Under the pieces are notes generated by a model. The model had not been told where the DNA came from, made no database searches, and saw only the letters and a list, made by a program, of their open reading frames with translations. DNA of 64,000 nucleotides from contig CAVNZM010000001.1 of assembly GCA_963693365.1 (NCBI GenBank), positions 14,804,418 to 14,868,417 on the forward strand, given 5' to 3'. Every line of letters starts with the position of its first letter. Position 1 is the first letter of the stretch. Position numbers and translations under genes: made by a program. This DNA is from Amoebidium appalachense. Taxonomy: Eukaryota; Protista; Ichthyosporea. Below, in pieces: positions 4,101 through 9,146 of this stretch.

Positions 4101-7100
4101 GGTGTGGATGCGCACGTGTGTGCCTGAGTGTGTGTTTGTGTGTTTGTGTGTGTGTCTTTGGCTTAGAACTTCACCTTACACCCACTGAATTTCAATTCCT
4201 GAACCCTCCCCCCCCCCCCCCACACACACACACACAGACATTGATGAGGTTCTATTGGGCCCCACTCAGTCAGCAGAGGCCCAGCAGAGGGCTAACCAGG
4301 AGATAGTCGTCAATATGGCCATGGGCTGGCTGGCTGTGGGTACCCCCCTGCAAATTCAAATTGCGAAATTCCAGATGTGAGCTGGTGGCAGTTATGCACC
4401 TTTACCATTCTCTGTCGTTGGATGATGATTCGGCACCTGGCTTCCCCCCTCCCTCTTACTACCATTGCTTTTTCTTTCCCTTCCCCCGTGTGTGTTTGAG
4501 GCTATACATGTGGTGGGTCATGATTATAAATGTTATTGCTGTTATTGTTGTTATCACCCTTATTTATCTTGTGATTCTTATTACTGTTATTATGATTTTC
4601 AGTACACTGGGGTGTGTGTAGACTGGGGTGTGTGTAGGGGGGGGGGGGGGGGGGGGTCAACAGCTGGTCGACAACATTCGCCTCCCACACTCACAGCTCC
4701 CCCCTCCTCTCTCGCTCTCTCTCTCTCTCTCTCTCTCTCTCTCTCTCTCTCTCTCTCTCTCTCTCTCTCTCTCTCTCTCTCTCTCTCTCTCTCTCTCTCT
4801 CTCTCTCTCTCTCTCTCTCTCTCTCTCTCTCTCTCTCTCTCTCTCTCTCTCTCTCTCTCTCTCTCTCTCTCTCTCTCTCTCTCTCTCTCTCTCTCTCTCT
4901 CTCTCTCTCTCTCTCTCTCTCTCTCTCTCTCTCTCCCCCCCCCCCCCCCCCCCCCCCCCCCCCCCCACACACACACACACACACACACACACACACACAC
5001 ACACACACACACACACACACACACACACACACACACACACACACACACACACACACACACACACACACACACACACACACACACACACACACACACACAC
5101 ACACACACACACCTGCAGGCTGGGGTCGGAGCGTTTGCCGTTTTCCCTATGGACGCCGTAAAGACGCGAATGCAAAACAGCCGTGCCAGGCCCATAGTTC
5201 AGGGCAGATATGTCTACAAGAACAGTTTTGACTGCCTGAGGCACATCATACAGCACCAAGGGGGGGTACGCGCGCTCTACAGGGGTGTAGGAGTGCCCAT
5301 GATGGGGGTGGGATTCGAAAAGATGCTTAAGTTGAGTGCAAACGACTATTTGAGGAACATGTTTGAGATCAAGAATACTACAAAGGTGCGTGGTTGCCTC
5401 TCCCCCCCCCCCCCCCCCCCCCCCCCCCCCCCCCCCCCCCCCCCCACACACACACACACACAACGGGTCACCAATTCTGTCATTGTACACTTATAAATTG
5501 CAAGGGAAGGCAGTTGCAGTGTATCATAGTTGTTTGGACCACACTAGGAGAAGGAACGAGATTGGGGGGGGAGGGGGGGGGTAGAAAGAGGGAGGGGAGC
5601 CGGGGGGGTGGGTGGGGGGAGGGGGGGGGGGGGGGTTAGAAGGGGGAAGGGGGGGGGGGAGCGCGGGGGGGGGGGGGGGGGTTTAATCAGGCTCGGCCTT
5701 TTTATTGTTTTGCATCTACTTACACCCCTGTTTTCTTGTTTAGGACATTAAGAAGTACCGATAAAGGGGAAGAGGAGGGGGGGGGGGGGGGGGGGGAGGT
5801 ATCGACCATGCTTTGCCCTTCATTGTCTGATTTGTTAAATTTACGCCCCTTTTCCTGGTGTAGGGAGACCTGCACTTCCCCCTGGAGGTGCTTGCCGGTG
5901 CGGGTGCTGGGGCCTGCCAGGTTGCACTGACCAATCCGATTGAGATGTTAAAGATAAGGATGCAGCTGCAGAGTGAACCTCTGGTATGTTATAACCCCCA
6001 CCCCACCCCCCACCCCCAAAAAAAACAAAAAAAAACCCATAATAATAATAATAAATAAATAAACAAGTAATAATAATAATCTAAATAAAGATAAAAATAA
6101 AAATAAAATAAAAATAGCAAAATAACTCTACGCACATGCACGGGCTATCTCTCTCTCTGTCTTTCCTTACCTCCCCCTCTCCCTTTCTCCCTCTCTGCCT
6201 CTTTTTCCCCGCCCCCTCTTCCCCTCTTCTCTCTATCGGGCATGCACATTCGCGGGTGAGCGCGCGCAAATACACACACACACACACACCAAACGATACC
6301 CATATCCGTTCCAACACTTCAACCCACTAACACATCCCCGTACTAATCACACAACCCCACCAGCCATGGATGGGGGGCAAACCTGTTCCGCCGGAACCCA
6401 CCCGCCGCGTTTTTGCCATAGCCCGCGAACTGGGTTTGTCCGGGTTATACCAGGGCCTGGGTGCCTGCCTGCTACGAGACATGTTTTTCTCTGCAATCTA
6501 CTTCCCCATCTACGCTTCGCTCAAGACTATGCTTACGGACCAGACAACTGGATTGCTTTCTTCTTCAGGTTTGGGCCCTACCTATTCCCCCCTTCCCCTC
6601 CCAAATCTCTTCTTCTTCCCCACACACGCACACTCACATAGGCATGTTTAGCACACACAAAGATGCGGACTGAGCTCCCTGCTTCTCTGACCCTATGCGG
6701 GGTGTGTGTGTGAGTGTGTGTTGCGCGGGGGGGGGGGGGGGGGGGGGGGGGGGTGGGTGGGCGGGGGGAGGGGGGATGGAAGGGGCGGTGGGTAGGTGGG
6801 TGCGCGCTTGTGCGTGTGCATGTGCGTCTCGGTATGTATGCGTGAATGTGTGCGTGTGTGTGTTTGTGTGTGTGTGTGGTTGTGTGATGTGTGTACCCAT
6901 GGATTCATTCCCCATCCCCCCCCCCCCCCCCCCCCCCCCCCCCCCCTTTACTTCCATGCAACCGGGCATGGTTGCTCTGTGTCGTGCATCTGTAAGCACA
7001 TGCGCATTTTTCGCTGCACTGCATTAGTTTGCACACACATCTTCACCGTTTTGCTCACCTTGCTTGCATAAGCAACCCTGCTCGTCTTGATCAAGACGGG

Positions 7101-9146
7101 TTGACCCGCCCAAGTTCAGTTGATGCTGCTGTCTGAGTTGGAGCGTCGTATATACGCGGGCTAAGGGGTCGAAACTCAGACGCAATTGATGACTTGGGTC
7201 CTCCCTGAGGATGGGCTCTGCTTATGACGCATACTGTGCACATGGCTGATGTTGCATACTTGAATGTTTGCCTTTGCATGTGTCCTGCACCATGCTTCTC
7301 GTAGTGTATGCGTACCTCGTACCGTGTTCCGCATTCAGACCCCCCCCCCCCCCCCCCCTCCCCCCCTCCTCCCCCCCCCCCCCCCTCACACACACACACA
7401 CACACACACACCTCACCTCTCCCAGCCCCGCAACTCCTGTCTCCCTTGCATCCGGTTCTGCATACACCGTACGAATGCAACCAATACTGACCCGCTACCC
7501 GATAGACAAATGCATTAACAGGTGTAAATATTGTCATGCACGGTTCACACAAACCTACGTGTCACGCAGGAAACACAGAAAATGGCTCGAGTAAAAGGGC
7601 ACACCACATCTTGCGCTCATGGGCCATTGGCGGGTGGCTAACGCGCAATGGAAATACACACACGCACACGCACACGTACACACGCATATGCCCATATGCA
7701 CACATACACACTCATCACAGCACAAACTTTACACGTACACGTCACACAACCCTTCCCTTCCTCCCCACCCTAGCCCCCCCCCCCCCCCCCACACACACAC
7801 ACACACCACCCACCCATCCACCCATCCACCCACCCCTCCCCCCCTCCCTAAATACACACACACACACACACACACACACACACACACACGTACACACACA
7901 CACACACGTACACACATACACACGTGTACAGGCCTGCTTCTAGCCGGTGCGCTTGCCACTGTTCCAGCGGCGCTTGTGACGACCCCCCTTGACGTCATCA
8001 AGACACGGCTGCAGGCCCCCCGGCCCACGACCTCTGACTGGCGCATCAACAGAGAGCTCAAGTATCGCTCTATTGCGGACTGCTTCATAAAAATCAGGAG
8101 GTAAGAGCATCAATCGTAATGGCAGTTCCTTTTTTTTTGGGGGGGGGGGGGGGGGGGGGGGGGGGGGGGGGGGGGGGGGGGGGGGGGGGGGGGGGGGGGG
8201 GGGCATTATCTGTTCTGTGTTGCTTTTGTCTTACGCCGGCCTTTATTTTACATAGTGCCCATGTGCGGGTCTCGGTATATATACACACACACTCATTTTC
8301 TCGCCCGGCCCCTCCATCTACCCATCCTCCTCCCCTCCCACTCTCCCTCCCTCCCTCTTCCTCCCGTTCTCCCTTCCTTGCCCCGCCCCCCCCCCCCCCC
8401 CCCCCCCCCCCCCCCCCCCCCCCCCCCTGCTATCTCTCTACCCTTCCTCCCCCCTCCGCCCTCCCCTTTCCCACCCCCCCTACAGCCTCTTGCATGGCTG
8501 CACATACCTCTTTTTCGCTTCTAGGCACATACATCTTTTTCTCTTCTTAGTCGAGACGTACCCTACCTACACTGTCAGAACACATATATTCCCAGCCCGC
8601 CTAAATCCGCACACCGTATTCCCATCCCACCTCCATCTACATACGACACAAAAACCCAATGCTGACATTCACTTCCCCGTACACATTTACACACTCATTC
8701 ACAGGAACGAAGGCTACCGCGCCTTTTGGAAGGGTTCCGTTGCCCGCGTATGCCTCTGGTCGCCCCAATTCGCCGTATCCCTTTTCGCTTACGAATACCT
8801 TCAGAAGAAACTCTTCCCAGACATCACACCCATGCCCCTCACTTACATCCCCATAGACAGCCGCGACCTCGTCTCCCTCCGAACGGAAAAGCTCACCGAG
8901 ACGCTAAAAACTGTCGACAAGGAGCTACACATTTTAGACTTGGACCAGCCCCACACGCCCCCGGCCAGGCAGGGGACGGAGCAGGTACAGACTAATGTCA
9001 TGGAGGCTATGACGTCACCAACCGTGACTGTTCCGATCGTTCCTACAACCCCGGTTCTGCCCAGCCCGGGGGTGGTGCCGGGTGCGGGTTTGGGTGTGGG
9101 TGGTGGAAATGGAGGTGGTGGTGGGGTTGAGAGGAGGGACAGCTAG
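1129..9146 (+). CDS. Calcium-binding mitochondrial aspartate/glutamate carrier (citrin/aralar, SLC25A12/13-like); multi-exon, 5' exons not resolved
   Basis: AG/GT-bounded exons (approx.): 1129-1217 ([29 protein letters not shown]), 1834-1987 ([26 protein letters not shown]-hand-like), 2801-2933, 3639-3820, 4239-4335, 5119-5385 ([13 protein letters not shown]), 5864-5982 ([12 protein letters not shown]), 6364-6568 ([25 protein letters not shown]), 7932-8100 ([12 protein letters not shown]), 8705-9146 ([21 protein letters not shown]...stop). Three PX[DE]XX[KR]X[KR] carrier signatures follow an EF-hand region. Confidence 0.92.
1226..1332 (+). mobile_element. 5'-truncated copy of the structured ~400-nt dispersed repeat (family R)
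   Basis: Near-identical to the last ~105 nt of copies at 6947, 21821 and 26778; ends GCATTCAAA followed by poly-C. Confidence 0.85.
2000..2200. repeat. Intronic minisatellite, ~35-40 bp unit (TTACCTTATATGGAAGGTGGCAGGGTGA...)
   Basis: About six degenerate tandem units visible. Confidence 0.75.
4706..5112. repeat. Compound microsatellite (CT)n-Cn-(CA)n abutting a 3' splice site
   Basis: Seen directly; followed by CTGCAG and the exon at 5119. Confidence 0.95.
6947..7339 (+). mobile_element. Family R element, copy A (intronic, between poly-C tracts)
   Basis: TTTACTTCCATGCAACC...GCATTCAGA; near-identical by eye to copies at 21890-22283 and 26778-27168; structured core 7067-7226. Confidence 0.88.

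Follow-up and report, generated by a model that had tools for sequence, protein, structure and literature searches.

The stretch analysed here, a 64,000-nucleotide window of Amoebidium appalachense contig CAVNZM010000001.1 (assembly GCA_963693365.1, forward-strand positions 14,804,418 to 14,868,417), contains a dispersed non-coding repeat whose core, judged by its letters and stems, is very probably a hammerhead ribozyme with its conserved blocks in a scrambled order. One of its copies, designated copy A, sits in sense orientation within a GT-AG intron (6569–7931) of a mitochondrial carrier gene. By blastn and profile searches, the window holds four near-complete cores (copies A–D) and seven fragments, so that the three near-identical copies, the diverged subfamily, and the fragments reported in the first-pass annotation, which was made from the sequence alone, are all present (Table 1). 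Blastn matched 6947–7339, 21890–22281 (95%), 26778–27166 (97%), and, on the minus strand, 42571–42747 (77%), together with fragments at 1226–1330, 21301–21413, 21470–21579, and 39505–39597. A profile built without the weak fragments regained two of them, 52712–52838 (E 6e-5) and 40922–40950 (E 0.006), and added a fragment at 41670–41795 (E 3e-4) that had not been listed before; with the covariance model alone, the pieces at 40926 (E 0.54) and 52709 (E 3.8) were non-significant.

Copies A, B, and C are 95–97% alike and constitute subfamily 1, while copy D, 77% alike over the core, represents subfamily 2. The family is modular: the 5' modules of the two subfamilies are unrelated, the core of ~170 nt is common, and the 3' modules are related. 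The copies annotated as units of ~390 nt are real, but the true unit is longer than 393 nt and reaches 452 nt when counted from the start of copy B at 21823. Likewise, the diverged copy placed at 42500–42742 is real but extends to at least 42873 and is itself 5'-truncated. The element was described as having neither an open reading frame (ORF) nor a terminal inverted repeat, and both statements hold: the chance ORFs over the copies give no credible Pfam match, and inspection of the sequence shows no terminal inverted repeat. The stretch occurs in 20 of the 24 listed public runs, from 5 studies. Four public runs gave 8550, 5222, 229, and 11 contigs aligned to copy A, and four gave 5516, 5274, 4488, and 67 aligned to copy D; with thousands of variant contigs the repeat is high-copy, contig depth being not equal to copy number. 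A public-run contig of depth 1022 (run X9) passes 42873, showing that subfamily 2 extends upstream beyond copy D. The subfamily-2 5' module could form an H-type pseudoknot of 7 + 7 bp by eye at 42820–42871 (minus), and in one contig of another run (X17) the 5' module is joined to the 3' end with ~50 other letters replacing 7108–7273, which represents a copy without the ribozyme core.

The pseudoknot drawn in the first-pass annotation between TGACCC and GGGTCG is real, and it corresponds to hammerhead stem II: the pairing 7103–7107/7166–7170 ends in G10.1–C11.1 and is followed by GAAA (7171–7174). The inner arm is stem III, with A15.1–U16.1 at 7174/7138 and U17 at 7139, and the four bases after 7139 pair with 7201–7204, directly before CUGAGGA, to form stem I. 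Thus, the helices named earlier for the multi-way fold do pair, while the stem I pairing (7140–7143/7201–7204) had been missed. CUGANGA, GAAA, G10.1–C11.1, A15.1–U16.1, and an H17 other than G are all present, and 17 of the 17 core letters listed are conventional in both subfamily majorities as well as in copies A and B, copy D having a private G8A. The hammerhead-like words noticed at first reading are therefore meaningful, forming a complete core with its stems in scrambled order, and the accompanying suggestion of a new ribozyme class gives way to a rearranged hammerhead. Stems I, II, and III comprise 3–4, 5–6, and 9–13 bp, respectively, and each contains one double change between the subfamilies (A-U/G-C in stem I, C-G/U-A in stem II, and G-C/A-U in stem III); both stem II changes are found at 94–99% of depth in four public runs. 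In helix X, an A-U pair becomes C-G in copy D and U.G in the subfamily-2 majority. The G8A, the 1.1 mismatch, and a stem III A.G mismatch of copy D are private, and the family majority repairs each at >99% of depth. The conserved core letters are identical between the subfamily majorities at 14 of 14 positions, compared with 100 of 142 other positions (~0.007 if independent). A four-block descriptor allowing any strand order matched copies A and B only in the 64 kb on both strands, and 3 of 20,000 shuffles of copy A. In addition, A-to-G and C-to-U changes yield G.U pairs on the copy A strand only, which, with the pairing of the named helices, agrees with the earlier claim of a selected RNA structure of this strand. 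Given this fold, the element likely cleaves.

In the four-row alignment, 98.8% of 165 cells are standard pairs and 3 of 42 pairs are double-changed; the covariation score was matched by 10 of 500 shuffles, which is weak alone with four related rows. The folding z-score was −2.97 for copy A (0 of 200 shuffles) and −0.92 for the diverged copy D (32 of 200 shuffles), and an alternative mid-arm pairing exists in subfamily 1. Rfam returned 138 matches over the whole window at E up to 1, none of them on the cores, and at E up to 10 it gave none for the copy A stretch and two at chance level for copy D. The Rfam search suggested in the first-pass annotation thus yielded no passing match on the cores, its sole ribozyme trace being faint (E 6.9) and aligning stem II and GAAA in the hammerhead register. 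No canonical type I, II, or III hammerhead with a contiguous 5-bp stem II at a 0–1 nt insert was found on either strand. The split and scrambled core explains why Rfam and standard descriptors miss the hammerhead. A small hairpin in the linker between stems I and II was considered as a conserved structure and rejected, as 7144 varies in up to 55% of depth and 7 of the 22 positions are shared, and neither a hammerhead nor a hepatitis delta virus (HDV)-like core could be built in the copy B hairpin extension or in the copy D 5' module.

Besides the order of its blocks, this hammerhead is set apart by two features that are not described for type SGC, namely a break inside the core and a kink-turn. 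The blocks containing the cleavage site (S), GAAA (G), and CUGAGGA (C) run S-G-C (7138–7143, 7166–7179, and 7201–7211), which is a non-circular order and corresponds to none of types I, II, and III. It does correspond to the order of type SGC, and helix X connects stems I and II at their free sides, as in that type. Type-SGC ribozymes were found in metatranscriptomes and shown to cleave (Eckert et al. 2023, PMC10085705), with no more than 1–2 nt assumed between CUGAnGA and stem II. Here, however, block C is not continuous with stem II: the strand that covaries in stem II is found 100 nt upstream, and contiguous registers are weaker and are broken in subfamily 2. The linker between stems I and II is not short either, being 22 nt in subfamily 1 and 18 nt in copy D. 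Helix Z and the closing helix follow on from A9, while hairpin H immediately precedes G10.1. By its pairing pattern, therefore, the element appears to be a hammerhead whose core is opened between A9 and G10.1 and bridged by two extra helices; Z and H would stack as a four-way junction and keep A9 adjacent to G10.1. This core is outside types I–III and, because block C is split, also outside type SGC as defined.

A kink-turn is predicted to link stem III to the helix connecting stems I and II. In both subfamilies, a 3-nt bulge is followed by G.A and A.G pairs between two helices, the arrangement of a standard kink-turn (PMC8191799), and A15.1 is separated from the first G.A by 16 nt. The four kink-turn G and A positions are kept between the subfamilies (4 of 4), although 13 of the 26 positions around them differ. 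The bulge, the tandem G.A/A.G pairs, and the 3b.3n A.G of subfamily 2 resemble the Kt-7-type kink-turn, and the 3b.3n A.G type folds in metal ions (PMC8191799). Differences from Kt-7 are the 3b.3n U.U of subfamily 1, an A-U pair at −1b.−1n, and a canonical (C) stem that is bulged after 2 bp.

The mobile character of the element, which had been postulated earlier, is supported by the lack of an ORF, a fixed 3' end at poly-C, 5' truncation, and a target duplication. Runs of at least five C follow six of the seven 3' ends, compared with 3.2% of window positions, in a window rich in poly-C/poly-G and CA repeats. The copies share one 3' end and are 5'-truncated, the fragments derive chiefly from the 3' part, and in public contigs poly-C abuts many internal positions of the element. 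Copy B exceeds one full unit by 16 bases; it starts with nine bases of its own 3' end, followed by a C7 tract (21832–21838) and a 51-nt hairpin extension (21839–21889). Both are missing from copies A and C, which begin immediately 3' of this extension; the hairpin could stall the reverse transcriptase (RT). It is irregular (−19.8 kcal/mol), and part of it recurs in loose ends of one public run (X1) and nowhere else in the window. Joints that go back from 7281 to 6954 and from 7221 to 6954 in three public runs hint at head-to-tail copies elsewhere in the genome, at points other than the unit end. From the pattern of copy B, a single copy, we infer that a tandem or circular template was copied by target-primed reverse transcription. 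Among Penelope-like elements (PLEs), those of the Chlamys group are described (Craig et al. 2021, PMC8557442) as favouring (C)n targets, being truncated at the 5' end, forming partial tandems, and including non-autonomous members, and the Naiad/Chlamys signature of 5' truncation, a fixed 3' end, microsatellite target bias, and a partial tandem (in one copy) was found here. By this analogy, a Penelope-type enzyme is the likely partner.

Taken together, we consider it probable that the repeat is a high-copy, 5'-truncated element with a split S-G-C hammerhead that cleaves itself at 7139/7140, and that it is a non-autonomous, retrozyme-like passenger of a Naiad/Chlamys-type PLE. Cuts in tandem transcripts would release 452-nt units, which would be joined into circles. 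A Penelope-type endonuclease/RT would nick a genomic G-run, and the nicked G-run would prime on the unit's own C7 tract, with copying proceeding round the template. Such copying would give one 3' end, variable 5' ends, and occasionally more than one round.

Whether one RNA molecule or two form the active fold was addressed with a crude two-dimensional distance model, which assumes 2.8 Å per pair, a kink of 50 degrees, and collinear stems II and III. In this model, the end of helix X is ~41 Å from the top of stem I and 54 Å from that of stem II, with reaches of ~37 and 31 Å; with the lengths of octopus Naiads, the distances are 17 and 30 Å and within reach. Since stem III and the non-canonical (NC) side of the kink-turn span 16 bp and X only 9–10 bp, ring closure by one molecule is improbable, and a single molecule probably cannot close the ring without opening X. 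The model thus suggests that two RNA copies are needed for folding. A similar puzzle is noted for some SGC ribozymes (Eckert et al., PMC10085705), and dimer-only cutting is known for the minimal hammerheads of PLEs (PMC4209133). The alternative mid-arm pairing of subfamily 1 would lengthen X and might permit a monomer. In a pair, docking would take place between two RNA copies, from the arm tip of the one to the junction of the other, so that tandem or paired transcripts would be cut and lone intronic copies mostly would not. As a tentative and on balance rather doubtful extension, the element may be a natural split-core hammerhead that works only as a pair, in which the extra turn of stem III and the reversed kink-turn block the monomer and copies cut each other. 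If true, tandem transcripts would be processed, yet the element would be harmless in host introns, and Naiad/Chlamys-type retroelements would be placed in the unicellular relatives of animals.

Several points weigh against a self-cleaving passenger of a PLE. No depth step at the predicted cut was seen in the public contigs, and no joints start at 7140 among those shown (15 of 42 and 12 of 230); hence, no genomic trace of cutting is seen. The sense intronic position of copy A argues against fast cutting by single copies, stem I is short (3–4 bp), and the cut site is GUU. The shuffle figure of the four-block descriptor overstates the case because the descriptor was composed after the fold had been seen. 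Family-wide variants were read as contig depth per position and not as haplotypes, and only four full cores could be aligned. The dimer step, which rests on crude two-dimensional distances, is the least certain one. The evidence for a circle comes from one copy, and a tandem linear template explains copy B equally well. No Penelope-type RT or GIY-YIG was found among the 155 window ORFs scanned, and the sole RT of the window is LINE-like (long interspersed nuclear element-like) with a different 3' end. Finally, the split-core fold was not seen in the three Chlamys 3' ends compared (1_cRei, 2_cRei, and 1_cInc), which are a thin sample.

The same missing footprint would be expected if a hammerhead-derived fold no longer cut and were kept as a handle for the partner RT, and this alternative also accommodates the failure of the crude model to close for one molecule while it closes for octopus Naiad lengths, the tolerance of copy A in a sense intron, and the fact that Naiads spread well without canonical hammerheads (PMC8557442). 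We regard it as unlikely, since the single-stranded catalytic letters have all been retained by both subfamilies despite the turnover of their 5' modules and linker, and since stem I, which is relevant to the ribozyme fold only, covaries. Somewhat less probable still is an ordinary type-SGC hammerhead in which stem II uses the bases just after CUGAGGA with a 1–2 nt insert, inserts of this size being known at this place (PMC10085705; PMC4209133), and 7103–7107 is an off-switch that captures the 3' strand of stem II. The contiguous register 7214–7219/7165–7170 gives 6 pairs in subfamily 1 and would remove one of the monomer's two distance conflicts. However, three of the six pairs are G.U, the fifth is lost in the majority of subfamily 2, at the very place where the upstream strand shows compensation, and in the 1-nt register pair 3 is a G.G mismatch. 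The upstream strand is also more stable (−8.7 versus −5.6 kcal/mol), and in four Naiads of PMC8557442 an upstream strand forms 6 bp with the bases preceding GAAA, while in Naiad_Plae and Naiad_Bfor the bases after CUGAUGA pair further upstream (helix Z).

An RNA polymerase III-transcribed short interspersed nuclear element (SINE) with a tRNA- or 5S-derived head, its helices being a by-product, would account for 7130–7141 and 7167–7175, which resemble A and B boxes apart from a single mismatch in either, and for some blocks that look 5S-like. The box-like words are internal (180–250 nt into the element) and are preceded by T5 runs in both 5' modules, and both are accounted for as stem III and GAAA; ARAGORN found nothing, and Rfam gave no tRNA, 5S, or signal recognition particle match at E up to 10. 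Thus, a small-RNA-derived head with an internal promoter at the 5' end was not found, nor was a known tRNA- or 7SL-related match, and we think a SINE very unlikely. Likeness to 5S rRNA, tRNA boxes, RNase P, and the twister, hairpin, VS, and lariat-capping ribozymes was considered as well, on consensus words only; Rfam gave no match to any of them. The resemblance to J4/2 of the HDV ribozyme, raised in the first-pass annotation, would correspond to an HDV-like fold with J4/2 at 7159–7164 and P2 as the pseudoknot, a reading to which we attach hardly any weight. The word and C7161 are indeed kept in subfamily 1, with no variant at 3% or more, and one loose-end consensus of low-copy subfamily-2 contigs has C (agreement 0.61). 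In subfamily 2 as a whole, though, this position is about half U and half G, the would-be catalytic C accounting for <8% of depth, and it is A in copy C. A relaxed descriptor could not accommodate this J4/2 and P2 in any fold, and the weak matches it gave in copies A, B, and C are in other registers and absent from D; no P3/L3 could be built, and the nested double pseudoknot of P1, P2, P3/L3, P1.1, and P4 was not found.

Table 1. Repeat copies, fragments, and predicted elements of the copy A core in the window
Feature	Position	Strand	Remarks
Copy A, subfamily 1	6947–7339	+	Poly-C on both sides
Subfamily-1 5' module	6947–7066	+	Unrelated to subfamily-2 5' module
Closing helix and helix Z, 5' strands	7067–7078	+	7067–7074 with 7219–7226 and 7076–7078 with 7213–7215; predicted to bridge the split core
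Hairpin H	7081–7100	+	Immediately 5' of G10.1
Stem II, 5' strand	7103–7107	+	G10.1 = 7103; partner 7166–7170; pair 5 C-G in subfamily 1, U-A in most of subfamily 2
Helix X, 5' strand	7109–7118	+	Partner 7190–7198; I-II interaction helix and kink-turn C-stem
Kink-turn, bulged strand	7119–7124	+	Bulge 7119–7121; G.A (7122/7189), A.G (7123/7188); 3b.3n U.U (A.G in subfamily 2)
Block S	7125–7143	+	Stem III 5' strand; U16.1 = 7138; H17 = U7139; predicted cut 7139/7140; stem I 5' strand 7140–7143
Variable linker, stems I–II	7144–7165	+	7 of 22 positions common to the subfamilies; contains the HDV-like word
Block G	7166–7189	+	Stem II 3' strand (C11.1 = 7170); G12-A13-A14-A15.1 (7171–7174); stem III 3' strand; kink-turn unbulged strand 7187–7189
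Block C	7201–7211	+	Stem I 3' strand 7201–7204; C3–A9 (CUGAGGA, 7205–7211)
3' module	7227–7339	+	Ends CATTCA(A/G)A, then poly-C
3' fragment	1226–1332	+	
3' fragment, subfamily-2 type	21292–21383	+	
5'-module fragment, subfamily-1 type	21468–21579	+	
Left target-site duplication of copy B	21808–21822	+	Begins with six C; right copy 22284–22298; 14 bp flush at both ends, 15 including the first C
Copy B	21823–22283	+	Full 452-nt unit plus 9 nt of own 3' end; ribozyme intact
Copy C, subfamily 1	26778–27168	+	Stem I weakened by 1-nt deletion
3' fragment including block C	39472–39597	−	
Short fragment with CUGAUGA	40922–40950	−	Profile E 0.006
Worn 3' fragment	41670–41795	−	Profile E 3e-4
Copy D, subfamily 2	42500–42873	−	5'-truncated; private G8A and position-1.1 changes not in family majority
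Worn 3' fragment	52712–52838	−	Profile E 6e-5

Elsewhere in the window, a LINE-type element at 10800–13764 (minus) carries the RT ORF 11265–13652 (RVT_1, E 3e-15) and a frameshifted C-terminal CCHC-like motif, with no endonuclease match; its closest proteins (57% and 37%) both have RVT_1 only. A direct repeat of 194 bp, corresponding to its own 3' end, flanks it and is followed by a doubled 70-bp tail and poly-A, and a tail fragment lies at 33547–33613. This RT was considered as the partner of the repeat and set aside for its different 3' end and poly-A tail. The stretches 15773–16249 and 18885–19361 (477 bp, 3.1 kb apart) are 100% identical, reflecting a recent duplication or an assembly artefact, and a tandem pair of ~270 bp units with 79% identity occupies 34652–35173. 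An intron-containing gene at 29597–31500 (minus) encodes a CAMK-group (SIK/MARK-like) kinase with a UBA-like stretch and poly-Q, the best matches of which, in Sphaeroforma arctica (55%) and in a EukProt entry with the Creolimax prefix CFRG (53%), indicate an ichthyosporean host.

The hammerhead is a textbook ribozyme whose blocks have been taken as unbreakable, and a form split between A9 and G10.1, with a four-way junction and a kink-turn as braces, would widen the known fold space. It would also bear on a point left open in print, as Naiads are reported without canonical hammerheads, and the extension of the design from animals to an ichthyosporean, with another target and arm length, would imply an old origin or transfer. 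The predictions are exact and testable: one cut site, named pairs, and the question of monomer versus dimer. In the literature, of which our coverage was incomplete so that an earlier description is possible, neither this repeat nor a hammerhead with a split core or a kink-turn was found. Pattern scans gave 0 and 0 loci in JGI metagenomes and 1, 0, and 5 loci in IMG/VR, none with the flanking helices. The scan of GTDB gave one locus, at the end of a contig from a bacterial metagenome-assembled genome (L007, 1–289), where the hammerhead words follow the S-G-C order and stems III and I have 4 and 3 bp, respectively; the count is at about chance level, and the upstream part of the locus is cut off.

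Among known ribozymes, the closest in layout are the type-SGC hammerheads (HRIMA-1 and its variants, PMC10085705), which share the S-G-C order, the core letters, the link between the 5' side of stem I and the 3' side of stem II, and a fourth helix. In contrast to these, block C is split here and the 5' strand of stem II lies upstream of block S, the linker is 18–22 nt rather than ~3 nt, and the kink-turn connects stem III with the I-II helix through both strands. Moreover, genomes of known organisms yielded no SGC ribozyme in that study, whereas the present one belongs to a eukaryotic genomic repeat. Non-LTR (long terminal repeat) retrozymes and the minimal hammerheads of PLEs (bioRxiv 10.64898/2026.07.22.740005; PMC4209133) are similar in being small non-coding retroelements tied to PLEs, for which two copies are proposed for cutting. 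Their hammerheads are of type I, occur in tandem arrays, and dimerise via a weak stem III; the present element has a long stem III and a non-circular order, and its copies in the window are dispersed monomers, with neither a two-ribozyme tandem nor a type I tandem array in the window.

In its insertion behaviour, the element resembles the non-autonomous Chlamys elements, such as MRC1 (PMC8557442), with their (C)n bias and head-to-tail partial repeats, and the three Chlamys consensus ends compared above read AA and then poly-C. Chlamys elements, however, are reported there from the green lineage and slime moulds, and no shared sequence is shown. In its strand order, the element is closest to the Naiads, which also show 5' truncation, partial tandems, and a microsatellite bias. 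Read by eye in File S5 of that paper, Naiad_Plae, Naiad_Bfor, Naiad_Ovul, and the octopus element preceding the last (Naiad_Obim by the order of File S1) have the same order of strands near their 3' ends in unrelated sequence; this accounts for four of the eight distinct places compared there, the other four lacking it, and it was not seen in the further places inspected. The paper lists Naiads from animals only and does not recognise the fold, whereas the present host is a unicellular holozoan and the element lacks an ORF. Its target is (C)n and that of the Naiads (TA)n, and, compared with octopus Naiads, the kink-turn bulge is on the 5' strand instead of the 3' strand and the stem III side is 16 bp instead of ~5. 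In Naiad_Plae and Naiad_Bfor, a hairpin precedes the upstream strand, as hairpin H does in copy A, the octopus pair being less clear, and this reading of the Naiads favours the split core over a contiguous register.

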